DNA of 64,000 nt from a virus, in the IMG/VR virus record IMGVR_UViG_3300031992_004571, one strand, 5' to 3'. The notes under the pieces are model-generated. The model was not told the origin of the DNA. It did no database searches and saw only the letters and a program-made list of their open reading frames with translations. Of this stretch, positions 4,259-53,631 are shown piece by piece; position 1 is the first letter of the stretch; the number at the start of each line of letters is the position of its first letter. The translations under genes were made by a program, and so were the position numbers.

Positions 4259-5011
4259 TTATTCACTGGTTCCCACGCCGCCGCTACCAGCAGCCATAGC
4301 AACCTTCCAACGGCCATGAGCAGTACGGGCTATCAACCCGAACTGTGTCCTCGGTAAAGGACGGGAATTGTCATTGATACGCTTCACCTCCTTAGCAGAA
4401 CGGAGGTAAGCGATATACTCACATACCTCGGTATTCTGCAAGAGAATATCCTTATAGATAGCGATATACTGCTCCTTGCGCTTACCTTGCGGCATGTAAG
4501 CGTCACGGACAGCCTGCAAACCGCAGTTGATGGCATTATAACGCTCCATCCAGACAATATACTCTCTGGCTGGAGCACCCTCCTTCGTCAAAGACTCTAT
4601 ATTCTTCTTATAGATGGAAAGTTTGGACTCAATCTTGCTCTTCTCAACCTGCCAGGCGACATCAGTAACACCCGGTGTACGGTCTGCAATATTCAAAGCC
4701 TCGACACGCTTTCGCTCATTGAGCGCACTGTCAAGATTCTCAGCGTGACTTTCCTCTGGGGTCAACGCAAGTTTCAACTGACTACGATAGAACTGCTTAT
4801 TAGTCATCATGGCACCATTACGATAACTCTTATGAAAAGCATCGTAATAGAGATCAGGCGTGAAACTACCCGCACCGATCTCGCCAATGGTGAACTGGTT
4901 CATCACACTGGCATCATGGTTATAGGTCACATACTGGGCCTGAACCATCACAGCAGTCATCAAAACGACTGCCATCATCACCATCCTCCGTATGTCTCTT
5001 ATATATATCAT
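4259..5011 (-). CDS. traI: TraI-like secreted protein
   Basis: 250 aa with an N-terminal hydrophobic signal (MVMMAVVLMTAVMVQAQ), located upstream of traJ. The real start is possibly the internal Met near 4984. Confidence 0.45.
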   Translation of the reverse strand: MIYIRDIRRMVMMAVVLMTAVMVQAQYVTYNHDASVMNQFTIGEIGAGSFTPDLYYDAFHKSYRNGAMMTNKQFYRSQLKLALTPEESHAENLDSALNERKRVEALNIADRTPGVTDVAWQVEKSKIESKLSIYKKNIESLTKEGAPAREYIVWMERYNAINCGLQAVRDAYMPQGKRKEQYIAIYKDILLQNTEVCEYIAYLRSAKEVKRINDNSRPLPRTQFGLIARTAHGRWKVAMAAGSGGVGTSE

Positions 5012-13054: not shown

Positions 13055-13135
13055 ATTCTTCTTTTTCTTTTCGTCTTTTACTCTCAGGCGACAAAGGCCA
13101 ACAGACACAATGCAACGCCTGATTTTTCGGTGCAA

Positions 13136-13470
13136 AGAAACTGTTTTTACGCCGCAAAAGCCGTCTTGAAAAATTTTATCTCGTATATTAACATTTTCAC
13201 GACCCGCAAAGTCGTAAAACGCTTCATATAAGACTTTTACAGAGATTTTCCTGTTTTACACACTCGAAAACAGGACATGAGATAACATAGAAAAAGACAC
13301 AGTTCAGCCGTCCCGTAAAGCAACATCTTTACAGGACTAAACCAACGCACATATATTATAAAATAAGGTACGCGCGTATAAGAACACAACAACTTCACAT
13401 CCATTGTAGCCGTCCGTGTTCTCCTTTTTTATCGAGTACGTCCAGACTCCCGGACTATACCATCATCGTA
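13136..13470. promoter_or_regulatory. Intergenic control region upstream of the tra operon containing a perfect 8-bp-stem hairpin and two CCGCAAA(A)G motifs
   Basis: Hairpin cctgttttacacactcgaaaacagg at 13250-13274. Motifs tacgccgcaaaagccgtc (~13150) and gacccgcaaagtcgtaaaacg (~13201). No ORFs. Confidence 0.35.
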
Positions 13471-13471
13471 T

Positions 13472-13665
13472 TTGCCATTTTCCTTGCAAAGGTAGGGAGG
13501 CCCGTAGCCATGCCAAGTACCAGTCGCACACTCCCTATTTCAGAAAAATTTGGTAAAGCCCCAGGGCATTTTCTTTTGGCACAAGACACAAAACAAAATC
13601 AAAATTTTACCGAAATTCCTTGGCGAAGGCCACTCTTTAGCCTCTCTCAAAAAACGGCAAGTAAA
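13472..13665 (+). repeat. R1 conserved noncoding module, copy A (5'-truncated), upstream of dnaN
   Basis: Matches the core ttccttgcaaaggtagggagg(c/t)cgtagccatgccaagtaccagtcgcacactccctatttcagaaaaattt... of copies B, C and D with a few substitutions. Confidence 0.8.
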
Positions 13666-13772
13666 AAGGCATACGGATGACGGATATACTCGATGTTCAA
13701 AAAAAAGATCTCACGGACACAATGAAAAGTGAATAAAATAAAAGGCACGGAATCTGGAAACCCGATATTCCT

Positions 13773-13819
13773 GAACGCAATAAACGCAAAGAACGCAATA
13801 AACGCAAAGAACGCAATAA
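13773..13819. repeat. Tandem 9-bp iteron-like repeat (gaacgcaat/aaacgcaaa, about 5 units) ~50 bp upstream of dnaN
   Basis: Direct reading: gaacgcaataaacgcaaagaacgcaataaacgcaaagaacgcaataa. Confidence 0.85.
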
Positions 13820-13862
13820 CAAACATAATTTTTCATTAGAGGTTGCGCACGACACGGAATAA

Positions 13863-15005
13863 GTGCATACAACTATGACATTTACAGTTTCAAACAAGAC
13901 CCTCGGTGACGCTCTGAACCTTCTCATTAAGGTGGTAAGTTCAAAGAACGTACTCCCCATCCTCGACAACTTCATCTTCTCGGTGAAGGGTGAAGAACTG
14001 ACACTGACAGCAGCAGACACAGAGAACATGATGACTGCCCGCATCAGCCTCACGGATGCCAGTGGAGAGGGTGACTTCGCCGTCAACGCCAAGAGCATGA
14101 TGGATGCAGTGAAGAATATCGCTGACATCCCCCTGACCTTCACCTTTGAAGAGGACAACAACAGCGTGAAGGTGGCATACCAGAATGGCATGTTTACCCT
14201 GCCGACGGATAACACCAACGAGTTTCCGAATATCGGTGACATCAAGGCAGATGCTCTGACCTTCGACATCCCAGAGAATATCCTACAGGAGAATATAGCA
14301 CGTACCGTTTTCGCAACGGCACAAGACGAACTGAGACCCGTGATGAACGGCATCTTCTTCGACCTCACAGCAGAGAGTCTGAACATCGTAGCATCAGACG
14401 GCCATCAACTGGTACGTAACAAGATACTCAACATCAAGGGTGAGGACACGAACATTGGTTCCTTCATCCTGCCGAAGAAACCGGCCCATATCCTCAAGAA
14501 CACACTCCGTAAGACGGACGGCACCGTCAGCATTAAAGCCGACGACCAGAGGGTAGAGGTGGTGACAGAGACATTCACACTCAACTGCCGACTCATTGAG
14601 GGACGCTACCCAAACTATAATAGCGTCATCCCCAAGAGTAACCCGAACATCCTCATAGCAGACAGAATGAGCCTGATCGGTGCGCTGAAGCGTATCAACC
14701 CCTTCGCCAACACAAGCAGCTGCCTCGTGAGGGTACACGTAGAGCCTGGCACCCTGCAACTCGAAGCCGAGGATTACGACTTCTCGAAGATGGCAACGGA
14801 ACGGATGGCATGTGAGTATGAGGGTGCTACCTTCACTATCGGTTTCAAAGGATCTTCATTCATAGAGATTCTTGACAACATCAAGAGCGCAGAGATACAG
14901 ATGCAACTGGCAGACCCCAGCCGCGCAGCTCTCATCCTTCCTGCAGAGCAGACGGAAGAGCAGGAGATACTGATGCTCCAGATGCCGATGCTTATCAACG
15001 ACTGA
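13863..15005 (+). CDS. dnaN: DNA polymerase III beta sliding clamp (DnaN) homolog
   Basis: 380 aa. The MTFTVSNKTLGDALNLL start resembles DnaN MKFTV... The three-domain length matches. Probable true ATG at 13875. Confidence 0.7.
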   Translation: MHTTMTFTVSNKTLGDALNLLIKVVSSKNVLPILDNFIFSVKGEELTLTAADTENMMTARISLTDASGEGDFAVNAKSMMDAVKNIADIPLTFTFEEDNNSVKVAYQNGMFTLPTDNTNEFPNIGDIKADALTFDIPENILQENIARTVFATAQDELRPVMNGIFFDLTAESLNIVASDGHQLVRNKILNIKGEDTNIGSFILPKKPAHILKNTLRKTDGTVSIKADDQRVEVVTETFTLNCRLIEGRYPNYNSVIPKSNPNILIADRMSLIGALKRINPFANTSSCLVRVHVEPGTLQLEAEDYDFSKMATERMACEYEGATFTIGFKGSSFIEILDNIKSAEIQMQLADPSRAALILPAEQTEEQEILMLQMPMLIND

Positions 15006-15075
15006 TAATGTACTCCAGTGTACCAGAGTGTACTTCACTGAACTACACTGAATTTTCTTTTGTTCATACGATCCG

Positions 15076-15103
15076 AAAGTCCTGCCTGTGAAGGTGGGAC
15101 TTT
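15076..15103 (+). terminator. Weak hairpin downstream of dnaN (7-bp stem, no clear U-tract)
   Basis: aaagtcc-tgcctgtgaaggtg-ggacttt. Confidence 0.2.
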
Positions 15104-15185
15104 CCCATGATAACAATTAACATCATTTTAACAATTTCCGTTCCAAAAATGGCAATTTCTGTGCTATTTACGGCAAGAAACGGTC

Positions 15186-15250
15186 TATTTCTGGAAATAA
15201 ATGTACCATTCTTGGAATTATTCTTGGAAATGTTGGAAATCTTGGAAATT
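15186..15250. repeat. Cluster of five TGGAA(A/T)T repeats, partly palindromic (atttctggaaat)
   Basis: atttctggaaataaatgtaccattcttggaattattcttggaaatgttggaaatcttggaaattt. Confidence 0.8.
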
Positions 15251-15299
15251 TCCTCGCGGCGGGATGCTCCCTACAGTCGCATCCCCGGCCAAACCGTTC

Positions 15300-16264
15300 A
15301 GCTTTGACCGTAACAAGGTAGCCGGTGGCTGACTCTCTTCAAACGCATCCGCTATCCGTGCTGAAAAACTATTATCCGTTTCCGTTATCCGTACCCTTAC
15401 GGACTATCCGTGGTGATAATCCGTGCCTGGGCCACTACGTGGAAAGGTAATCCAGAAGCATGTCCGTGTCACTCTAAGGCAATCCGTACTGCCGCTATTA
15501 GTCCCACTCTGGGCAGCATGGCATACCAATGTCGAACTCATTCAGAGGCGAACAATGTTCTGCTTCACCAGTATCGACGTTGGTGTGCTACATGCTTTGG
15601 TCGCCGGACATGATGGCAACGGTACGGATCTGTATCGCCACACAGACGAATGACAACAGGGGCGATGGCGTGCCTCGCGGACAGAACACCCGCAGGAAGG
15701 CGACTTAACGGACGGCGTGATGCTAAGATTTGTGCCAGAGAGGTGCTGCACTATGTCGATGGGTGCAACCAGTTACCACCTATCGCCATTTCCCGACGGC
15801 ATACTGCTGTCAGAAACCCCTTGCACGTCACCGCCGCAAATCCACATCCCTGCACGTTCCTATCACTTTCCTCCAGGTGTCCATGCCATGAGTCACTGAT
15901 GCCACCACACCCCTAACGTCATTCCCGCATAGTACGGGAACACAAGGCACCACATACTATGCCGCTTCCTCCGAGACGGTTTTCAACTAACTTCGTTAAA
16001 CACTTTTCTACCTTTGTACTTACATTTCCATCATTCAATTCAAGAAACACCAATAACAGCCCCATCACCATTCGTCCATCTGATAAGACCTTATTGTTCT
16101 CCCTGTTAGTGCAAGCATTAACCTGGAGTACACCCGGACACATCATCTGGAAGTCGGGCGATAACAAAACTTCCGTCGGGAACAGAAGCATAGTTATCGT
16201 GCCGATGGCACAAGCCCGTCTGGCGAATGGATCTTTGGACTGTATTAAATATTCAAATCAGGGT
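15300..16264. other. GC-rich (~52%) ~1 kb segment with no ORF over 90 aa. Either a decayed gene or a structured ncRNA.
   Basis: Six-frame track shows only short overlapping ORFs. Composition differs from the flanks. Confidence 0.4.
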
Positions 16265-16550
16265 GCTTCGCAATACCATTCCAATCCTATTTCCTTAATC
16301 CTACGCCCACACCAAAGAGTATGTTTCATCCTGGCACAGAACCTTCTCATACTCAGCAGCAGAGCCGCAGGGTAGGATAAGGCACTGTTTACAGGAACAT
16401 GGGCGATGACAGACGCTTTCAATTCCTTAGACAAACCACTGGCAATCTCCGACAAGGCTCCGAAGCATCAGCAGTTTGTCTCTTCCTTGAAAACGACACT
16501 CATCCTAATGCCCATGTGGTGAAACATCACTCTTTCCCAACCCCCAAAAA
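16265..16550 (+). repeat. R2 conserved noncoding module, copy 1
   Basis: About 286 bp, colinear with 51575-51860. Conserved core gtttcatcctg.cacagaaccttctcatactcagcagcagagccgcagggtaggataaggcactgtttacaggaacatggg.gatgacag with a variable middle. Confidence 0.8.
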
Positions 16551-16584
16551 TCCGAACTTCCAGATAATTTTATACCTCCATTGT

Positions 16585-16615
16585 ACCAAATACCGCCTAT
16601 TTGGTACTTTTTAAT
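16585..16615 (+). terminator. Rho-independent terminator-like hairpin following R2 copy 1
   Basis: taccaaata-ccgcc-tatttggta followed by ctttttaatt. Confidence 0.5.
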
Positions 16616-16790
16616 TATTTCATAGAATAAACAAAAAAACGCATTTTTCCACATCGATGCGTTAATAATCGTTTTTTCTCCACGGAGTAGTAAAAACTCA
16701 ATGATAAATGGTGGAACAAAAAATGCAAACTTGAACAAAACATGAAGGTCTCATCAATGTCAGGTTATGTGGGTGTTTTTCACCCTAAAC

Positions 16791-17180
16791 GGTTCATTCC
16801 GCTTACGCGACGCCGTTTTCCTTGCAAAGGTAGGGAGGCTCGTAGCCATGCCAAGTACCAGTCGCACACTCCCTATTTCAGAAAAATTTTGTAAAGCCAG
16901 GGCATTTTCTTTTGGCACAAGGCACAAAACAAAATCAAAATTTTATCCGAAATTCCTTGGCGAAGGCTACTCTTTAGCCTCTCTCTTTTAATGGCAAGAA
17001 AAAGGCTATAAGCGAAACGAAGTCGATGACGACTAAAAAACATTAAACATAACTGCTGACTTGATGAGAGAATCAAGATAAGAAAAAGGCAAAGCTCACT
17101 CAGCCGATAACTCTCAAACAGCAGCACACAACAACAAACAAACACCGAAGGCGACGGAATAGAAAAAGCCAACAAACAGT
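16791..17180 (+). repeat. R1 conserved noncoding module, copy B (core plus 3' extension ending at the ATG of the next gene)
   Basis: Core is identical to copy D over ~165 bp apart from one substitution (ctcttta vs ctcctta). Extension gctgacttgatgagagaatcaag...agctcactcagccgataactc...caccgaaggcgacggaata is shared with D and C. Confidence 0.85.
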
Positions 17181-17435
17181 ATGAACGTAAATATTAAGTA
17201 CATCTTCGAGTGCAAGGACGGTTTCAAGTTCGAGCGTGAGACTCCAGAAGAGATTATCCGTATCATGCAGGAGAACTACGATGCGCTGAAGAAGATAGCA
17301 ACAGGCAACGGAGATTTCTGTAACTACTTCATTGATGCTTCCAACGAGTATTTCCCCAAGGGTACAATATGCACCAGCATAGACGGTACTTATAGAGTCT
17401 ATACATTGAGAACGGAGATAACTCAAATAAAGTAA
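17181..17435 (+). CDS. Hypothetical small protein (84 aa), first gene after R1-B
   Basis: ORF immediately 3' of R1. No recognisable motif. Confidence 0.45.
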   Translation: MNVNIKYIFECKDGFKFERETPEEIIRIMQENYDALKKIATGNGDFCNYFIDASNEYFPKGTICTSIDGTYRVYTLRTEITQIK

Positions 17436-25303: not shown

Positions 25304-26320
25304 TTATTTATTTTCCTCGTGTTTTTTCAGATATTCTTCCGGCCAACATTTGTAACGCTTACGGAAAGCATCTCGCATACTGGCTATACCATCCTTATCG
25401 AGGTTATAGATGTTGTCAATAACCGCATGAGCGGAATGACATCCTGCTTCAATCTCAGAAACAACCTGGATCTTATTACGGACTTTCCCCGAATCATCGA
25501 CAATATCCTCCTGCACGGACTTCTGGGGACGGAGCCTATATCGTACTGACATATGGGGAAAGTACTTACGGAATGTAGATGCAAAAGCATCAATATTTTC
25601 TTTCTCCAAAAGTTCGTACTGCTCCTTTGTCACAGACAGTTGAATAAGCCTGTCTGAAACGAAAATCGTATCAATATAAACGTCGCTTACGATATTCTTT
25701 GTTTCTTTATCAGGAAAAAGACTACAGAAGTCACGAAGAAACTCCGGCCACTGACGGTAAACCGACTGACGAAGATTCTCTTCATTCTGCCGTCGGGCAA
25801 GATATTCTTCATTCATATATTCTTGACGCTTTGCTTCACATTCTTCAGCAAAATCCTTCAAGGCACAGGTGATAACCATCGGGTCAACCTTCCCGTAGAA
25901 CTTACCGAAATGACCGCACTTGAAACGATAGAAGAACATTTGCATCACAGAATACTTCATATCCTTGTACTCCTGGGCCAACAGCAGAGCCAGTTTCTTA
26001 GTCTGTTCATCGTCCATATTCTTGGAACCAGTGAACTTGTTCAGATTGGCAAGGGCTGTGACAAGCCACGACGAAGCAGACTCTGGCCCAAAAGCAGAGT
26101 CAAGCATCCCCAAAGTGGAATAACCCTCCATGATGGACTTACGTTCATCAGAGGCAAAGATTGCCTGCGTATCAGGATTCACTTCAACATTGAAGTTCTC
26201 ATACGACTGGTAACTCTTTCTGAGGTGTTCCACCGCCAGAGCGCAAGTCTTTGATGATGTTGACTGCGCCTGTATAGATGTCCTCGCCTGTGCGATAGCC
26301 GTTGTTACTGTCTGTTCCAT
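25304..26320 (-). CDS. Hypothetical protein (338 aa, probably shorter from an internal Met)
   Basis: The track ORF overlaps the upstream gene by 122 nt. An internal Met at ~26131 is the likely start. Confidence 0.4.
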   Translation of the reverse strand: MEQTVTTAIAQARTSIQAQSTSSKTCALAVEHLRKSYQSYENFNVEVNPDTQAIFASDERKSIMEGYSTLGMLDSAFGPESASSWLVTALANLNKFTGSKNMDDEQTKKLALLLAQEYKDMKYSVMQMFFYRFKCGHFGKFYGKVDPMVITCALKDFAEECEAKRQEYMNEEYLARRQNEENLRQSVYRQWPEFLRDFCSLFPDKETKNIVSDVYIDTIFVSDRLIQLSVTKEQYELLEKENIDAFASTFRKYFPHMSVRYRLRPQKSVQEDIVDDSGKVRNKIQVVSEIEAGCHSAHAVIDNIYNLDKDGIASMRDAFRKRYKCWPEEYLKKHEENK

Positions 26321-27167
26321 TAGTTCTATTTTTTTTGTTCAACTTATCTTCCTGGATAATCATCCAACTGCTGAAATGATGCTTTGCATCTCCGAGATTC
26401 TGATGACGTTTGCCGGAGATCTTGACTTCCTGCCCCCAACGCTGTAGGTATTCATCAAGAAGTTGCTCATTGACACCAAGAAACTTGAAACGCATGAAAA
26501 CCTGTTCCTTCCAGATGGGACTGGCGCGAAGCACGGTAATTTCTGCATCTACATCGGCGCACACCGTCTGGTCATCGGCACCTACCACCGGCCCCTCACC
26601 CTCGCGTGCACGGGTATCCGCACTCGAAGAGTGCTCTCCTTTACTTTCCTCTCCTTTACTTTGTGTACTTTTTCCGGAGTTATTCGGGGTTTCTTCCAAA
26701 TTATTATTTATTTCTTCCGAATTAAATATGGTTTGTTCCGAAGAAACTACCTTTTTATCGGAATTAACCTGATTAGGATTCAAGTTCACAACTAAATATG
26801 GAGTGTTATCCGGAAACTTACGTTTGGCGACAGTACAGAAGGAAATATAACGCTCCTGAATACCATGCGAAGTGAGTACCTGATGAGTATCGAAAACAGT
26901 CTTATCAAAAAGACCGATAGTGATGCAGTAATTGATAATGTCTTGAATTGTATCTTCCTCTAAACCAGAGATTTCAGAGACAATGAAAGGCAAATCTTCA
27001 TCCCAAGGCAGATAGTAGCCAGAGGCATATATCTGACATAACAGAATATGATAGACCGATACCGCCTGAACACCTTTATGGCGTATCAGTTTACGAATCT
27101 TAATGTCCTGATAGAAATTCACATCGTTCGTGAAATAATCAAGACCTTGCTTCTTTGGTCGTGCCAT
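26199..27167 (-). CDS. DUF4373 (Lin1244/Lin1753-like N-terminal) replication-initiator-like protein with a low-complexity SEE(T/I) linker
   Basis: MARPKKQGLDYFTNDVNFYQDIKIRKLIRHKGVQAVSVYHILLCQIY matches the DUF4373 phage replisome-organizer N-terminal pattern. Confidence 0.55.
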   Translation of the reverse strand: MARPKKQGLDYFTNDVNFYQDIKIRKLIRHKGVQAVSVYHILLCQIYASGYYLPWDEDLPFIVSEISGLEEDTIQDIINYCITIGLFDKTVFDTHQVLTSHGIQERYISFCTVAKRKFPDNTPYLVVNLNPNQVNSDKKVVSSEQTIFNSEEINNNLEETPNNSGKSTQSKGEESKGEHSSSADTRAREGEGPVVGADDQTVCADVDAEITVLRASPIWKEQVFMRFKFLGVNEQLLDEYLQRWGQEVKISGKRHQNLGDAKHHFSSWMIIQEDKLNKKNRTNGTDSNNGYRTGEDIYTGAVNIIKDLRSGGGTPQKELPVV

Positions 27168-27645
27168 AACAGGTGTTATTTAAGAGTAAACAATCATTGT
27201 TAGTAGTTTCTTCCGAAATAATTCGGGTTTCTTCCGAATTAACTACCGTTTCTTCCGAGGAAACTGTCTGTTTCTTTGGAATATCAAAAAAGTAAGGTAT
27301 AGACTCACTGTCTATCACTCCATCACCAGAGAGAATAAACTTGGATGGGATGGCTACCATACGACGCTGGGTGAAAGCCTCTTTGTCAAGAAGATCATTC
27401 TTTGCCATACGGCGTACAACCATCCCTACCAAGTTAGGGGTAATACCATCATGACGAGACGCAACCTTATGAAGGAAACGACTATCATAAGGCCGCTCAA
27501 AGCCCTCACTCGTAACCTCAAACAAGATGGTTACAATAAGGAAGGCTCCCTTGAAGCCAAACTCCTTCTGGATAGCCTTCACACAGGGGAATGTGTAAAA
27601 ACTACGACTAAGGTGAACTGCTTCGGCTGTTAAAGTCTTACTCAT
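27139..27645 (-). CDS. Second DUF4373-like protein (paralog) with a C-terminal SEET x3 repeat
   Basis: FYTFPCVKAIQKEFGFKGAFLIVTILFEV plus VSSEETVVNSEETRIISEETT. Confidence 0.45.
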   Translation of the reverse strand: MSKTLTAEAVHLSRSFYTFPCVKAIQKEFGFKGAFLIVTILFEVTSEGFERPYDSRFLHKVASRHDGITPNLVGMVVRRMAKNDLLDKEAFTQRRMVAIPSKFILSGDGVIDSESIPYFFDIPKKQTVSSEETVVNSEETRIISEETTNNDCLLLNNTCYGTTKEARS

Positions 27646-31369: not shown

Positions 31370-32305
31370 TCAGAGATTTATAACATTGGATTTCCTTTCC
31401 CAAATCATCTTCTCAGAATCGGCAGCAATGATGGCATCCACATCCATGCCGAAATGGAGATGCAGACTCTCTAACAGGTCTTCAAGTTCCGTCAATGACT
31501 TCTTACCGAAATTGCGAAACTTCATCAAATCGGTCTTGTTACACTTCACAAGGTCGTAAAGTGTATCAACGTCAGCACCTTTTAAACAATTCAAAGACCT
31601 GACAGAAATGCCTAAATCATAGACTGGCGTATTCATCATGGCGGTAAAGGTTCCACCTTTATCACCTAACAGGTAATCATATTCTGATACTGGTGCAGTA
31701 TCGATATTGTTGATACGCTCCAGTTTCTTGACACGGTTCTGCAATGCTTCAATAACATTCTGGAAATTGGTATTGTCAAAAACAAGTTGCTTATATTCCC
31801 TACGTAACTCAGAGAACGTCTTCACCGTGGCAAGTTTGCGCACGGCATGACTGACAATCTGCATGATACGACTACGGGTAAGACCGTACTCTTCAGCCAC
31901 ATATTCCACATCCTTACCTTCAAGAAGCATCGTAAGAATAGTTTTCTCACGTTCTTTCAGTACATCGTCACCACTGGCCTCGATGATAACCGAAAAAATC
32001 TCATTGATAAGATGTGCGGGAACACCTTTTCCTAACAGGTGGATGGCAGAACGGGTATCATCAAGATTCTTCTCTAACTCCTTCTCTGCCAACTGAAGGT
32101 CACGCTTCGCCGCAAAGATTCTCTTTTCAATGAAAGCCAAGTCTGACAACGTATCGAAATACTTCTCGATAGTCGCTTTGTCTATCTTTAACAGACGGTC
32201 AACAAAATGACCTTTCAACACGCCCTTCTCAACCCAGTTGGAAATGGTCTGAGGGGTGACATCCAACAGCAGAGCTGCTTCGTCTCGGGATAAAAGCCTT
32301 GCCAT
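31370..32305 (-). CDS. Multidomain regulator: N-terminal excisionase/MerR-type HTH, central sigma-70 region-4/LuxR-like HTH, and a C-terminal RNA polymerase alpha-CTD-like (HhH) domain
   Basis: [114 protein letters not shown]. Confidence 0.5.
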
Positions 32306-32609
32306 ATAATACTTCTTTTTATCGTTAATTACTCGTGGAAAGGAAAGCACTTCTGCTTTCTACATCACAATTGGACATCCAAGAATAACCAGATGCATGG
32401 TTATCAATCCGCTGCCCCACTATGTAACGCTGACACTGCCCTTTTAAAAGGCAGTTGACACCCTCACAAAACAGATATAGTTCATTCTTTTCCATAATCA
32501 CTTATCATCTAAATTCAACCTGCTACAAGCGGCCAGACCAGCCATGATAAAACCCATGAGAGTACCAAGGAGGAAACCGATGCCTCCGAAAACAAAATTC
32601 ATTAACATG

Positions 32610-40132: not shown

Positions 40133-41251
40133 TTATTTAGTTAAACTCTGAAAGGCAATAACAGAAGAAACAAGATCACTAAGCTCTTCGGCATCATGAC
40201 CGCTACGGAAGAAGTCGCTGATATCCTTCTCTTTTTTGGAACCAGAAAGCGGTAACTTAACAGAAAGAATCTGGCATTTTGTTGCAGAATCTTCCTTGGG
40301 ATAATTACGGCACTCCTGCACACGCAGGGCTGACTCACGAATGCCAGTCTCATCACAATCGTACAAGAATACGATATACGGGAACAGCTGAGCAATCTGG
40401 TTGAACGTTCGTGAGGATAACTTCGCTGTCTCACTGTTCAAACTGATGGCATAGAAGCCACGGGTTGATAAAGACATGACATCTTTCTCTCCACCAGTGA
40501 CAAATAAGCAAAAGTCCTTTGCTACGTCAAGGGTTTCTTTACGGGAACGGATCTTCTCTCGCTCCTGCTCAATCTGGGTCATCCCAAAGATATATGGACG
40601 CGGGAGATTCCCGGCGTACATGAAACGACCAATCTCAGCACCTGGACGGTAAACCTTGATACCAGTTCCTTCGTTAAAGGTATAGCCGAACATCGGCACT
40701 TCCTTTGTACCATATATATTATAATGGCTACCGTCTGCACGCTCAAAATAACAGGATGTGAGACATTTCACACCGAAACGCTGCAGCACGTCAATGGTAA
40801 TACCATACGACTGCCAGTATTCTAATTCGAACTTGTTGAAGTTACGATACTTAGGGGTAAACTTCACAGGACGGTTGTCGGTAGTTCTCTCCGTCACTAC
40901 TTTCTTCATCACAGGATGATGACCTACTGGAGCATCGTCGAGAATGAACAACTCACATTCCCTGTCGATAGTACGAAGGATTTCCATAAAATCATTACGG
41001 ACATCAAGACCGGTCAACTTACCAACCAGCCAGAAACAGTCACCATGCCAGGTGCTGTCACCAAAATCCTTCAAGATAAAACGGCCCTCACCGCCTGCAT
41101 TATCCTCATTATAATAGAGGTGACAGGAGGGATTATTGTCTGTGCGGAAGGAGTTACGAAACACCTTCTTCTTACAGTCACCACCCATATAATGGACGAA
41201 CACGTCAAGTCCACCGTTGGTCTTTTGTAATATTCTGTCTCGGTCTGTCAT
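40133..41251 (-). CDS. DNA primase, TOPRIM domain (DnaG-type) with an N-terminal Cys/His zinc-binding region
   Basis: TOPRIM signature FVTGGEKDVMSL...IVFLYDCDETGIRES. N-terminal ...NNPSCHLYY...HGDCFW. Confidence 0.6.
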   Translation of the reverse strand: MTDRDRILQKTNGGLDVFVHYMGGDCKKKVFRNSFRTDNNPSCHLYYNEDNAGGEGRFILKDFGDSTWHGDCFWLVGKLTGLDVRNDFMEILRTIDRECELFILDDAPVGHHPVMKKVVTERTTDNRPVKFTPKYRNFNKFELEYWQSYGITIDVLQRFGVKCLTSCYFERADGSHYNIYGTKEVPMFGYTFNEGTGIKVYRPGAEIGRFMYAGNLPRPYIFGMTQIEQEREKIRSRKETLDVAKDFCLFVTGGEKDVMSLSTRGFYAISLNSETAKLSSRTFNQIAQLFPYIVFLYDCDETGIRESALRVQECRNYPKEDSATKCQILSVKLPLSGSKKEKDISDFFRSGHDAEELSDLVSSVIAFQSLTK

Positions 41252-43869: not shown

Positions 43870-44074
43870 AACTTCAAAGATTTCTGCTTATGAACACCTC
43901 ATAACCAAAATACACCCAAAAATATGGCTTGAAAGCGTTCGCCATAAAAATGCTTTGAAATGTTGCGAAATTGTTAAGAGTATGCTCTTGAACTCCCTCT
44001 ATTTCCTCGAAAAAATTGCCGCCGCGCAGGCTGCTGTTGAGGAATAAACGAAAGATTCTGAATATGAGGAAGTT

Positions 44075-46898: not shown

Positions 46899-46972
46899 CT
46901 ATAAACTTATGGACAAGAACAAATAACACCATCTTTCCTATGTCCTTTCCGTTGTTTAATTTTCACCATAGA

Positions 46973-47337
46973 GGTTCATTCCGCTTTCTGACGTCTTTCC
47001 CCTTGCAAAGGTAGGGAGGCTCGTAGCCATGCCAAGTATCAGTTGCACACTCCCTATTTCAGAAAAATTTTGTAAAACCCAAGGGCATTTTCTTTTGGCA
47101 CAAGACGCAAAACAAAATCAAAATTTTATCCGAAATTCCTTGGCGAAGGCTACTCTTTAGCCTCTCTTTTTTAATGGCAAGGAAAAGGACTAAAAGCGAA
47201 ACGAAGTCGATGACGACTGAAAATTTATTGAAACAACGGCTGACTTGGAAAGAAAACCTTATGAAAAGGAACTTAGCTCACTCAGCCGATAACTCTCAAA
47301 AACCGAAGCCGACGGAATACAAACAGGCATATATAAA
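46973..47337 (+). repeat. R1 conserved noncoding module, copy C
   Basis: Core shares ~95% identity with B and D, with single-base indels. A shortened 3' extension ends at the ATG at 47338. Confidence 0.85.
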
Positions 47338-49195: not shown

Positions 49196-50176
49196 ATGAA
49201 AGATTTCGATTTATATAGTTATGACAGATATATCGTCAGTTTCTCTGGGGGAAAAGACAGTACCGCCCTACTGCTCTTCCTCCTTGATAATGGTGTACCG
49301 GAAGAGAAAATAGAACTCTGGCATCAGGAAATAGACGGACGTGGCCGTAGTCTCTTTGATTGGGAGGTAACACCAGACTATTGCCGAAAGTTGGGTGAAG
49401 CATTTAATATCCCAGTTTACTTTCAATGGAAAGTCGGTGGTTTTGAGCGTGAAATGACTCGCACAGAAAGCCTAACGGCACCAGTCTGTTTTGAACTTCC
49501 TAACGGTTCAATACAACAGACTGGAGGTGACAGGGGTAAACCTTCCACGCGGAATAAGTTCCCACAACCGTCACCAGACCTTCGGGTGCGCTGGTGCAGC
49601 GCATATCTGAAAGTGGATGTATGTGCAACGGCTCTTCGTCATCAAGAGAGATTTCAGAACAGCCGTACTCTGGTATTGTCTGGTGAACGGGGTGAGGAAA
49701 GTAAACAGCGTGCAGGATATGCCATCATTGAACCTGACAGGGCAGATCTGAGGAATGGACGTAACCCCAGATACATTGACCGCTTCCGTCCTATTCGTGA
49801 CTGGAAGGAAAAGCAAATATGGGATATACTGGAGAAATACCGTGTTCGTCCTCATCCATGCTACTTCATGGGGTTCGGACGGTGCTCGTGCAAATTCTGT
49901 GTATTCGGTAACTGTCATCAGTTTGCCTCTGCTGCCTGTGTGAGTCACGACCAGGCCAATGACTTGATAAAGTTTGAGAAAGATTTCGGGTACACGATGA
50001 AACGTGATACAGACCTCGCTTCTCTTATCCGTAAGGGTGTTCCTTATGACTCCATCACGGAAGAATTAAGACAAATTGCCACTTCATACGAATATACTGC
50101 ACCTGTGTTTATCTCTGATAAAGAGACTTGGCAACTTCCTGCAGGAGCCTTCCGTAAATGCGGTGGCCCATCATAA
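49196..50176 (+). CDS. PAPS reductase-family (PP-loop) protein with a C-terminal Cys cluster
   Basis: PP-loop YIVSFSGGKDSTALLL. Cys cluster GFGRCSCKFCVFGNC. Confidence 0.65.
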   Translation: MKDFDLYSYDRYIVSFSGGKDSTALLLFLLDNGVPEEKIELWHQEIDGRGRSLFDWEVTPDYCRKLGEAFNIPVYFQWKVGGFEREMTRTESLTAPVCFELPNGSIQQTGGDRGKPSTRNKFPQPSPDLRVRWCSAYLKVDVCATALRHQERFQNSRTLVLSGERGEESKQRAGYAIIEPDRADLRNGRNPRYIDRFRPIRDWKEKQIWDILEKYRVRPHPCYFMGFGRCSCKFCVFGNCHQFASAACVSHDQANDLIKFEKDFGYTMKRDTDLASLIRKGVPYDSITEELRQIATSYEYTAPVFISDKETWQLPAGAFRKCGGPS

Positions 50177-51574: not shown

Positions 51575-51860
51575 TGCTTCGCAATACCATTTCTATCCAA
51601 ACTCTTAATCCTATCGCCCAACCAAAAGAGCATGTTTCATCCTGACACAGAACCTTCTCATACTCAGCAGCAGAGCCGCAGGGTAGGATAAGGCACTGTT
51701 TACAGGAACATGGGTGATGACAGTCGGTTTTAATTCCTTTTACTAACAGCGGAGTCACGTCGGCAAGCTCCTGAGAACTCAGCAGTTAGTATTTCCTTAA
51801 AACGGACACTCATCATAATGCCCATGTAGTGAAACATTACTCTTTCCCCACCCTTTTTTA
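51575..51860 (+). repeat. R2 conserved noncoding module, copy 2
   Basis: Colinear with 16265-16550 with a variable middle. Followed at ~52105-52135 by a similar taccaaata...tatatggta hairpin plus T-run. Confidence 0.8.
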
Positions 51861-52272
51861 TCGAATCAACCTGGATCTGATAATAACAACCTTTTTGTTG
51901 ATATAATGATTACCGTCATTAGTCAACTGATGGCGCAAGCGTATCTCACTGATGCCAATGTCATCAGCCGAAAACTTCCGGAAGATGGCAGATACACTAC
52001 CGAAATAATAATTCTTATGCCCATGCAGAAAATGAACATGCACAATTTTGATGCCTTTTGTTTGTTGTTCCATAACAAAATATTTTTGCAAAGATACCAA
52101 ATAACTCTTATATGGTATTATTTTAACCTGCATAAATAAGAATTATTAACCAATACAAACAGTTAAAGACTGACCTATAATCAAATAATTATGTTGTGTG
52201 GTGAGTACCACAAACTTGAACAAAGATGAAATCTCATCTACGTCCTGTGCGTTACGTCTGTTGTCACCGTAA

Positions 52273-52660
52273 AGGTTCATTCCGCTACTTGGTGCCTTTT
52301 TTCCTTGCAAAGGTAGGGAGGCTCGTAGCCATGCCAAGTACCAGTCGCACACTCCCTATTTCAGAAAAATTTTGTAAAGCCAGGGCATTTTCTTTTGGCA
52401 CAAGGCACAAAACAAAATCAAAATTTTATCCGAAATTCCTTGGCGAAGGCTACTCCTTAGCCTCTCTTTTATAATGGCAAGAAAAAGAGGCGATAGCGAA
52501 ACGAAGTCGATGACGACTGACAACAAAAAGACATAACGGCTGACTTGATGAGAGAATCAAGAAAAGAAAAAAGGTTCAGCTCACTCAGCCGATAACTCGT
52601 AAATTAACAACAGTACAAACAAACACCGAAGGCGACGGAATATAAAAAGCCACAAACAGT
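52273..52660 (+). repeat. R1 conserved noncoding module, copy D
   Basis: Core identical to copy B apart from one substitution (ctcttta vs ctcctta) over ~165 bp. 3' extension conserved and ends at the ATG at 52661. Confidence 0.85.
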
Positions 52661-52831
52661 ATGAAGCAAATGACAGAAGCACAGCAGAAACTCGTCCGGG
52701 AACTGGGTCTGGTAGGTCTCTTCCTTCAATGGATGGAGAACCATAAGAAGATATCAGACTTTATTCTCTGGTTGGAAATTATCGCCCTGATATGGGCAGT
52801 ATTCACTTATAACTTCACAACTAATATTTGA
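52661..52831 (+). CDS. Small TM protein (56 aa), not in track
   Basis: MKQMTEAQQKLVRELGLVGLFLQWMENHKKISDFILWLEIIALIWAVFTYNFTTNI. Confidence 0.35.
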   Translation: MKQMTEAQQKLVRELGLVGLFLQWMENHKKISDFILWLEIIALIWAVFTYNFTTNI

Positions 52832-52835
52832 GATT

Positions 52836-53105
52836 ATGATTATCACAAGACCAAACTTCAAGCAGGCGTATCTCGTGTTTGCCGCTAACGGTACAATACG
52901 ACTGAATAAGAAAACCATCGGAATCTGGAAGCGGACAAGCCCCAAATGGGGCATCCGCAAGCTACCGAAAATGGTGTTCACGGCTAATGTTCATTATAAC
53001 AGAAACAGTATGGTACAGCTCTCTAACGAGAGTAAACTTCAATTGATGATGGCAGTAGGAAGAAATATCCCGAATACGATGCTGACACCTATCGCTCAGT
53101 CGTGA
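52836..53105 (+). CDS. Hypothetical protein (89 aa)
   Basis: ORF with no recognisable motif. Confidence 0.4.
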   Translation: MIITRPNFKQAYLVFAANGTIRLNKKTIGIWKRTSPKWGIRKLPKMVFTANVHYNRNSMVQLSNESKLQLMMAVGRNIPNTMLTPIAQS

Positions 53106-53196
53106 AAATGTTAATATAAGACTTTTAATTTATTTCTCATCAGTGTGTAGCTGAAAATACTTAATTTCGCACAGTAATTATTTAAATAATACGATT

Positions 53197-53631
53197 ATGA
53201 ACAGTCATTTTATTGGACGCATCGGTAAGGATGGTGCAAAGGTTATCGAAGGTAAGAATGGTAAGTTCCTCTCTATGGATGTAGCAACGGACTACTATAG
53301 CAGAGGTGAGAACAGAACACTATGGATCCGTGTACGTAGTAACATCCCTCGATACGTCGAGAAACTGGCCCCCCATTTGACTAAGGGTAGTTTGATAACA
53401 GTAGAGGGTCAGCAGCTTGAACCCAGTACCTGGATAGGTAAGGATGGTGAAGCACATGCCCAGATTGTTATCGTGGCTAACTTCATTGACTTCGTGAGAA
53501 CCGGCAAGAAGAAGGATGATACCAACAGTAACCAGACTGCAGCACAGGGACAGCCTGTAACGGTGGAAGCACAGCAACAGGATGCTCCTTTCCCCGCTCC
53601 TGCAGATAATACGGACGATTTACCCTTCTGA
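53197..53631 (+). CDS. ssb: Single-stranded DNA-binding protein (SSB)
   Basis: OB-fold N-terminus, a Q/P-rich linker and a C-terminal acidic tip DDLPF. Confidence 0.8.
   Translation: MNSHFIGRIGKDGAKVIEGKNGKFLSMDVATDYYSRGENRTLWIRVRSNIPRYVEKLAPHLTKGSLITVEGQQLEPSTWIGKDGEAHAQIVIVANFIDFVRTGKKKDDTNSNQTAAQGQPVTVEAQQQDAPFPAPADNTDDLPF

Follow-up and report, generated by a model that had tools for sequence, protein, structure and literature searches.

What is the function of the non-coding DNA that separates the transfer (tra) operon from dnaN in a mobile element that encodes its own beta sliding clamp? The question is raised by a 64,000-nucleotide stretch of DNA, IMG/VR record IMGVR_UViG_3300031992_004571 (the whole stretch is called the window below), which is a conjugative element of Bacteroidota type and in which a first-pass annotation had placed a candidate iteron-type origin of replication directly upstream of dnaN. 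Based on a comparison of sequences, this gap is most likely a composite regulatory region with one copy (R1-A) of a repeated hairpin, R1, at its centre. On balance, R1 is judged to be a Bacteroidales analogue of single-stranded-DNA (ssDNA) promoters, and the tandem array that had suggested an origin would be a variable segment of the dnaN leader.

A repeated hairpin occupies the centre of the tra-dnaN gap

The non-coding gap extends from the ATG of the first tra open reading frame (ORF; position 13055) to position 13875, a distance of about 820 nt, and the divergent arrangement of the tra operon and dnaN around it is kept in loci L001 to L008, relatives that were fetched through their DnaN homologs. 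All ORFs inside the gap encode at most 60 residues and overlap the nucleotide-conserved hairpin.

The copy of R1 that had been noted in the gap is present (Table 1). It belongs to a set of four same-strand copies in the window, A to D, which share a nearly invariant core of about 190 nt. As ssDNA, the four copies fold with z scores of −5.3 to −6.1. Folding of the core alone gives a z score of only −0.8 to −1.4; the non-conserved outer arms have to be added before the hairpin emerges. Copy A and copies B to D have outer stems of different sequence, yet the two arms are still complementary. Diverged copies in other elements also fold (z scores of −4.7 in L001, −6.2 in L075 and −5.4 in L077).

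Homologs of R1 span about 60 rumen Bacteroidales loci. Most of these come from a set of 57 metagenome loci retrieved with a pattern that included the two promoter boxes described below; the same pattern gave 0 matches in a scan of viral contigs. A 20-mer scan of species genomes yielded six more, each in a rumen metagenome-assembled genome assigned to Prevotellaceae, Bacteroidales, Bacteroidetes or Prevotella. Covariation was computed on 40 non-redundant homologs. In the RNAalifold consensus, 29 pairs connect the two arms, and 12 of the 29 show compensatory changes. Of the cells counted, 95.9% are paired, compared with 32–56% in slid controls, and none of 500 shuffles reaches the observed value of any of five pairing measures. 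Furthermore, in sub-families the apex and the spacer stem have been swapped for unrelated sequence that is still self-complementary. The R1 hairpin is kept by selection for pairing. Both the stability (z scores of −4.7 to −6.2) and the covariation found here are properties looked for in a hairpin of the ssDNA-promoter class.

Copies B and D have cores that are 98% identical, suggesting that the two exchanged sequence recently. Here the duplicated unit extends beyond the hairpin, since each of these copies has, about 550 nt to its left, one member of a 173-nt repeat (86%; 16264–16436 and 51575–51747). A second group of hairpin cassettes, termed class 2, was found with an nhmmer profile and shares only the apical part with R1 (Table 1).

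The stem of R1 contains a match to the Bacteroidota promoter

The housekeeping sigma factor of Bacteroidota (sigma-ABfr) recognizes TAnnTTTG at −7 and TTTG near −33 (PMC7366714). On the minus strand, the left arm of R1 reads CTTG-N19-TACCTTTG, which corresponds to nTTG-N19-TAccTTTG. In duplex DNA, this promoter faces left, with dnaN behind it. When the minus strand is folded, the boxes lie on the 3′ arm and read toward the base of the hairpin, with the 5′ arm as the template. Host promoter boxes are thus found, as a match in sequence, in a stem whose own folded strand would serve as the template. Over 54 R1 copies, pairing reaches at least 90% at the −33 element and 20–70% at the TAC of the −7 box. 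As a mutant of the −7 box, TACCGGGG is proposed.

The boxes also occur in hairpins that came to light without use of the box motif, when the DNA in front of dnaN in L001 and L006 was inspected. These independent, diverged hairpins keep TACCTTTG and an nTTG at 19 nt, and in their spacer stem a different set of complementary sequences (for example GTGACTGC/GCAGTCAC) has taken over. In class 2, the −7 box is either TACCTTTG or TAAATTTG (TAccTTTG or TAaaTTTG), so that only the free positions of the consensus vary, and a matching −7 box is likewise present in the hairpins of more distant elements reached through SSB homologs. On the gene strand, TAnnTTTG is found between the hairpin and the ORF in only 1 of 52 cassettes, and a scan of the gap for sigma-70-type promoters and terminators returned no more than expected by chance.

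Judging from the geometry of the folded promoter, the transcript of copy A would start at about 13661–13670, which would give dnaN an A-rich, unstructured leader (Table 1). Such a leader suits the phylum, since Bacteroidota mRNAs lack a Shine-Dalgarno sequence and favour A-rich leaders (PMC7366714).

R1 cassettes head co-oriented operons

In nearly all R1 copies, the first ORF on the same strand begins at +326 to +391 from the box. In contrast, the left-hand neighbours are mixed in orientation (25 plus, 20 minus) and lie 11–1474 nt away. The R1 cassette belongs to the genes on its right. In the window, all four copies are followed by genes on the plus strand: dnaN after copy A; ORFs at 17181, 17488 and 17929 after copy B; small ORFs from 47338 and a PAPS-reductase-like gene at 49196 after copy C; and ORFs at 52661 and 52836, followed by ssb at 53197, after copy D. 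Across the loci, the cargo comprises dnaN, ssb, DUF2851, HNH and LPD28 domain genes, an RnlB-like antitoxin and many small proteins of no known family; among 37 representative small downstream proteins, a Pfam search identified six families at E ≤ 0.001. The class-2 hairpins are always directly upstream of an SSB of 116–118 residues with an acidic tail, which matches PF00436 above the cutoff. Several copies per element, heading operons with ssb or establishment genes, are thus observed, and this cargo is typical of leading regions.

The cassettes of an element are co-oriented in 22 of 22 loci with at least two copies, a count that was read by hand from the listing and sets aside weaker self-matches of the hairpin on the opposite strand (the raw script count is 6 of 33). 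These features bear on the idea that R1 is a mobile or recombination repeat, either a miniature inverted-repeat transposable element (MITE) with long terminal inverted repeats or a series of integron attC-like sites between cassettes. The long inverted repeats, the several copies per element and the small, promoterless-looking ORFs between them would agree with this idea. However, R1 is variable in its outer arms and conserved in its inner core, the opposite of what a MITE shows, and the copies are co-oriented and keep a fixed distance from the start of the next ORF rather than from the previous stop. The attC sites measure 57–141 nt, compared with about 320 nt for R1. No IntI-type integrase was identified, the sole integrase found being a match to a general phage and integrative-and-conjugative-element (ICE) family, and the loci fetched contain no copies outside ICE-like contexts. 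Both versions are extremely improbable and were rejected on anatomy.

The position of the cassettes relative to the relaxase was examined in the relatives. In L029, L049 and L050, cassettes lie 3–4 kb upstream of a PF03432 relaxase gene and are co-directional with it; in L029 and L050, the two loci scanned for this feature, a mobC-like gene precedes the relaxase. Because the relaxase is usually found in the lagging region (PMC11541004) and the cassettes lie upstream of it in the same direction, this layout would fit cassettes in the leading region that are transcribed toward the origin of transfer (oriT) from the transferred strand, as in F. Two further loci encode a Mob_Pre (MOBV-type) relaxase (L037, 2116–3663; L055, 3828–5375) located 2–4 kb downstream of a co-oriented R1 cassette. 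As these have Mob_Pre instead of the MobA/VirD2 type, the R1 cassette occurs in elements with different relaxase families.

A folded-strand promoter is proposed for R1

Taken as an ssDNA promoter, R1 would act as follows. After conjugative entry, the minus strand, which is the template of dnaN, ssb and the other downstream genes, would fold on itself. The stem would rebuild a duplex Bacteroidota promoter (nTTG, 19 nt, TAccTTTG) with pairing complete at the −33 element and the −7 box partly open. This folded promoter would read past the base of the hairpin into the single-stranded template of the downstream genes, so that host RNA polymerase would make sense mRNA before the complementary strand exists. 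In the duplex, the boxes face the opposite way, and conversion to double-stranded DNA (dsDNA) would therefore redirect or shut off expression.

The precedent is the F plasmid, in which Frpo1 and Frpo2 are 92% identical, lie 5 kb apart and are located upstream of ygeAB and ssb-psiB (PMC9849209). Their stem-loops rebuild the −35 and −10 boxes, early expression from ssDNA depends on them, and conversion to dsDNA switches them off (PMC9849209). R1 shares with Frpo1/2 of F, and with ssi1–3 of ColIb-P9, an imperfect hairpin of about 300 nt that rebuilds both host sigma boxes in its stem and has mismatches at the downstream box. As in those systems, several near-identical copies lie on one strand of the element, each heads an operon with ssb or small establishment or anti-defence genes, and the direction makes sense only with the folded strand as the template. 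Unlike those systems, the boxes of R1 are the sigma-ABfr elements (−33 TTG, −7 TAnnTTTG) rather than TTGACA and TATAAT, its host is an integrative element of rumen Prevotellaceae/Bacteroidales, its cargo includes a beta-clamp, its copies are scattered across about 40 kb instead of being gathered in one compact leading region, and R1 is known from sequence alone.

Several observations weigh against this proposal. No sequence similarity to the known elements is detectable: a blastn search of R1 against 72,556 plasmid records gave no match, and no Rfam family was matched at gathering thresholds over the whole window or at E ≤ 1 over 13100–17300. R1 would thus be an analogue of Frpo by anatomy and not a homologous member of the group. 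The box conservation in the pattern-retrieved loci is circular, as the pattern included both boxes, which leaves the smaller independent set to carry the argument. In L075, TACCTTTG is preserved but a TTG at −33 is missing, and the spacing of the two boxes in class 2 is shorter, at about 17 nt. The strand that folds is not firmly indicated. In 53 of 54 copies the minus strand has the more favourable free energy of folding, a test that is weak in that the shuffle z scores are equal on both strands and composition may explain the count, and G-T wobbles favour the minus strand in only 82 versus 41 cells, which is suggestive. The transferred strand is tentatively assigned from the context of the relatives, the window itself containing no relaxase or oriT, and the tra operon of the window lies on the strand opposite to the cassettes, unlike that of F. 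Finally, the promoter in the duplex is a good match to the consensus and should fire leftwards, an activity that the model does not need and leaves unexplained.

The main rival, which is unlikely, is that R1 is a leader that acts at the level of RNA: contained in long plus-strand transcripts, it would be a structured RNA serving in antitermination like EGeRS/conAn, as an RNase III site or as an operon insulator. Repeated long structured sequences upstream of the establishment operons of the pLS20 family act in this way (PMC8708921), 25 of 45 copies have a co-oriented neighbour upstream, from which read-through is possible, and conserved leader motifs such as GTCGATGACGAC and CCGATAAC follow the hairpin. 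For copy A, however, the upstream operon is the divergent tra operon, and no plus-strand TAnnTTTG is present in 13136–13480, leaving no obvious feed. In addition, the best-conserved stretch of R1 is a host promoter on the other strand in fixed geometry, the wobble asymmetry leans toward the minus strand, and no Rfam family is matched. The comparison with EGeRS1/conAn itself goes no further than the occurrence of long, structured repeats in front of several establishment operons, since these modules act in RNA as antiterminators and have no promoter in the fold (PMC8708921), unlike the stem of R1 with its consensus host promoter.

R1 may also be compared with the single-strand origins (sso) of rolling-circle plasmids (ssoA, ssoU) and of ICEBs1 (sso1), which are strand-specific folded DNA that functions in one orientation only and recruits RNA polymerase on ssDNA after transfer, as proposed for R1; no relation in sequence was seen, though none was tested for. 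By analogy with Frpo, the R1 hairpin could additionally prime complementary-strand synthesis and would then be a single-strand initiation site rather than a vegetative origin (oriV). That R1 is such an origin only, recruiting RNA polymerase or the primase of the element for a complementary-strand primer with any mRNA being incidental (compare ssoA and ICEBs1 sso1), is considered quite improbable, although a priming role is compatible with the ssDNA-promoter proposal. In line with priming, Frpo RNA primes DNA synthesis according to the title of Masai & Arai (1997), as cited in PMC11541004; ICEBs1 has a functional sso (PMC4595007); and the element supplies a clamp, an SSB and a primase-like protein. 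On the other hand, sso sites make short primers, keep no fixed distance upstream of operons and usually occur once per replicon, whereas R1 keeps a tight spacing to the first ORF and has conserved leaders, both of which point to gene expression, and at least four copies, each heading an operon, exceed the needs of priming.

A further, doubtful extension of the ssDNA-promoter proposal is that R1 depends on the state of the DNA: folded ssDNA would drive the establishment genes (clamp, SSB and small anti-defence proteins) and perhaps prime the complementary strand, and the duplex would reverse the direction. It is similarly doubtful that, in the duplex, the boxes of copy A read into the tra operon and those of the other copies read antisense into the preceding operon. 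If this were true, completion of the second strand would turn an establishment programme into a transfer or silencing programme by means of one piece of DNA.

Table 1 Features of the window and class-2 cassettes of other loci
Feature	Position	Strand	Basis or remark
Conserved block adjoining tra	13064–13257	−	79–87% identical in L001, L004 and L006 while the remaining gap diverges
Small perfect hairpin, 9-bp stem, 9-nt loop	13249–13277		Sequence reading; between tra block and R1-A
R1 copy A, imperfect hairpin of about 320 nt	13398–13732	−	Near-invariant core 13478–13666; ssDNA fold −62.8 kcal/mol, z −6.06
−7 box of R1-A, TACCTTTG	13487–13494	−	Fits sigma-ABfr TAnnTTTG; upstream half mostly unpaired in folds
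−33 element of R1-A, CTTG (consensus TTTG)	13514–13517	−	19 nt upstream of −7 box; pairs with 13619–13624
Predicted leader of hairpin-initiated transcript	13662–13874	+	A-rich, unstructured: RNA fold z +0.61; AT skew +0.39 to +0.56
Iteron-like array, five tandem 9-mers AACGCAA(TA/AG)	13773–13819	+	55 nt before dnaN ATG, inside leader
39-nt block TTAGAGGTTGCGCACGACACGGAATAAGTGCATACAACT	13836–13874	+	Directly before dnaN ATG; comparison of dnaN relatives
dnaN homolog (beta sliding clamp, 376 aa)	13875–15005	+	Three-domain match; homolog lengths
R1 copy B, hairpin and conserved leader	16748–17119	−	z −5.3/−5.4; core at 16816
Candidate vegetative origin, two GTTTCTTCCGAA iteron clusters	26689–27281		Repeat search; in Lin1244_N genes
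R1 copy C	46928–47301	−	z −5.5; core at 46999
R1 copy D	52229–52604	−	z −5.5; core at 52299
Class-2 cassettes, among others	L011 2513–2669; L016 5270–5428; L018 1252–1385; L030 9480–9685; L039 4122–4294; L065 1066–1216		nhmmer

The tandem array is probably a variable part of the dnaN leader

The five tandem 9-bp units on which the first-pass annotation had built its origin are real and are not a chance feature. They form an 18-nt unit, GAACGCAATAAACGCAAA, repeated 2.6 times at 100% identity, which can also be read as five 9-mers of the form AACGCAAWR (13774–13818). A search of the 64 kb gave five matches to the 9-mer, all of them in the tandem array, with no dispersed copies beyond chance. Among the relatives, the number of units is not conserved: five are present in the window, four, one of them degenerate, in the near-identical L020 and L046, three in L006–L008, and none in L001 (91% DnaN identity) and L004 (72%), where an ORF takes the place of the array up to the 39-nt block in front of dnaN. 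The array is located about 100–150 nt into the predicted A-rich leader, and it is most likely a slippage-prone, length-variable A/C-rich segment of that leader, as its variation among relatives would suggest.

An iteron-type vegetative origin next to dnaN, at which the 9-mers would bind an initiator of the element (for example a Lin1244_N protein) and drive plasmid-like replication after excision, is very improbable. It would be consistent with the perfection of the tandem repeat, with the initiator-like, primase-like, SSB and clamp proteins that the element encodes, and with the persistence of three units at this position in a relative whose DnaN is only 68% identical. The copy number of 5, 4, 3 or 0, however, includes complete absence in the closest dnaN relative having an upstream ORF, and the abutting 9-nt units differ from direct repeats of about 17–22 bp phased on one face of the helix. 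No initiator gene adjoins the array, its neighbours being a tra membrane protein gene and dnaN; the initiator-like genes lie 12.4 kb away and carry repeats of their own. Between 13000 and 13900, no match to the DnaA box TTATCCACA is found at ≤1 mismatch. The GC content of the gap (35–42%, versus 40–48% elsewhere) resembles that of ordinary intergenic DNA and forms no AT-rich trough, and the cumulative GC skew, which had been put forward as a check, makes no turn at the gap. The suggested resemblance to the chromosomal oriC-dnaA-dnaN arrangement also fails, with no dnaA among the ORFs flanking the gap and no DnaA-box cluster.

A textbook iteron layout is instead found within the two initiator-like genes. 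The 12-mer GTTTCTTCCGAA occurs at 26689, 26710 and 26731 and again at 27206, 27227, 27248 and 27270, with a spacing of 21 nt, and each cluster (26689–26747 and 27206–27281) has an overlapping inverted copy. At ≤2 mismatches there are 17 matches versus 6.0 expected, and 0 of 100 shuffles reach 17. The location of an origin inside an initiator gene is known from lambda (ori in gene O) and SPP1 (oriL in gene 38). The region resembles these phage origins in its direct repeats at two-helical-turn spacing with an inverted copy inside replisome-organizer-like genes; it differs from them in the 12-nt length of the repeats, in having two clusters in two adjacent paralogous genes, and in being a candidate recognized from sequence only. 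Region 26689–27281 is thereby a better candidate for the vegetative origin than the array at 13.1–13.9 kb, and origin-cloning effort is redirected to 26.7–27.3 kb.

Other conserved features of the gap

Next to the tra operon, a block of the gap is conserved among the relatives (Table 1). It contains the two CCGCAAA(A)G motifs of the earlier annotation, both of which are present (CCGCAAAAG at 13152–13160 and CCGCAAAG at 13204–13211). Dispersed copies of CCGCAAARNCGT in the window do not exceed chance. The block also carries an imperfect palindrome centred near 13204 (13171–13203 versus 13205–13239) and a conserved AGTTTCTTTGCA at about 13129–13140 on the minus strand. Judged by its sequence, it is probably the promoter/operator region of the tra operon. 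A related copy (80–85%) of the palindrome 13171–13239 is found at 53093–53131, just upstream of ssb, and the pair may be a shared operator.

The perfect hairpin described earlier is also present, although its stem is of 9 bp and not 8 bp. No T-run follows it on either strand, and it is therefore not an obvious terminator. A hairpin of differing sequence is found at the equivalent place in L001 (about 4948–4975). At the other end of the gap, the 39-nt block TTAGAGGTTGCGCACGACACGGAATAAGTGCATACAACT is nearly invariant in all dnaN relatives, L001, L004 and L006 among them, even where an upstream ORF overlaps it. Because this near-invariance persists despite the divergence of DnaN (68–91% identical), the block is read as a dnaN-specific signal, probably in translation or in the mRNA.

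Gene content of the element

The conjugation genes of the window include two DUF4134 pilin-like genes, the TraG P-loop ATPase and TraM; an integrase, DNA methylases and ParA are also encoded. The first-pass annotation had credited the element with its own replication toolkit, and most of its components are supported. ORF 13863–15005 carries all three DNA_pol3_beta domains. The start of DnaN was set from its relatives, the best 120 of which are mostly 374–386 residues long; because the closest homologs have 376 residues, the true start is placed at the ATG at 13875. The protein is about 58% identical to chromosomal Prevotella DnaN. In a tblastn search of plasmids, DnaN matched only chromosome-like records; a match in a Bacteroides finegoldii 'plasmid' lies in a housekeeping region (murB, coaBC, recN) and was set aside as irrelevant.

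The SSB (53197–53631) matches PF00436, and the two Lin1244_N (formerly DUF4373) proteins (26199–27167 and 27139–27645) match the PHROG family 'replication initiation protein/replisome organizer', the larger one at 2e-50. The case for the 'TOPRIM primase' at 40133–41251 is weaker: its product matches a PHROG DNA-primase family (5e-20), and searches of Pfam, NCBIfam and PDB sequences were all without a match. As the element encodes a beta-clamp, an SSB, a primase-like protein and initiator/replisome-organizer-like proteins, a replicative phase is plausible.

Two further observations concern the window as a whole. A minus-strand gene at 31370–32350 encodes a 326-residue protein in which HTH_17, sigma-70 region 4 and the RNA polymerase alpha C-terminal domain (PF03118, 6e-20) are fused. 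This combination is unusual, and the protein might steer host polymerase to promoters of the element. Homology to a related element in L073 starts at window position 44018 (L073 4967), just upstream of the integrase gene, and the matching point in L073 falls in the 3′ end of the chromosomal pyruvate-phosphate dikinase gene. To the left of 44018, the window instead has element DNA (helix-turn-helix, phosphoribosyltransferase and primase-like genes). Because element DNA stands where L073 has chromosome, the window may hold a circular or tandem junction or two adjoining elements.

Implications

Promoters that act on ssDNA explain how conjugative plasmids express SSB and anti-defence proteins within minutes of entry, and they have been documented so far for enterobacterial plasmids. 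To look for such elements, a large survey of leading regions relied on similarity to five known sequences together with the sigma-70 consensus, with Bacteroidota not mentioned (PMC11541004). Surveys based on sigma-70 cannot detect Bacteroidota promoters. Among the papers examined in a literature search, none treats ssDNA promoters in Bacteroidota; two further papers contain both kinds of term. If the proposal for R1 is true, the ssDNA-promoter mechanism would extend to a phylum that is dominant in gut ecosystems and exchanges resistance genes through conjugation. R1 would then mark which small genes are 'early', and thereby candidates for anti-defence functions, and would provide a signature of sequence plus structure with which further such elements could be searched for.

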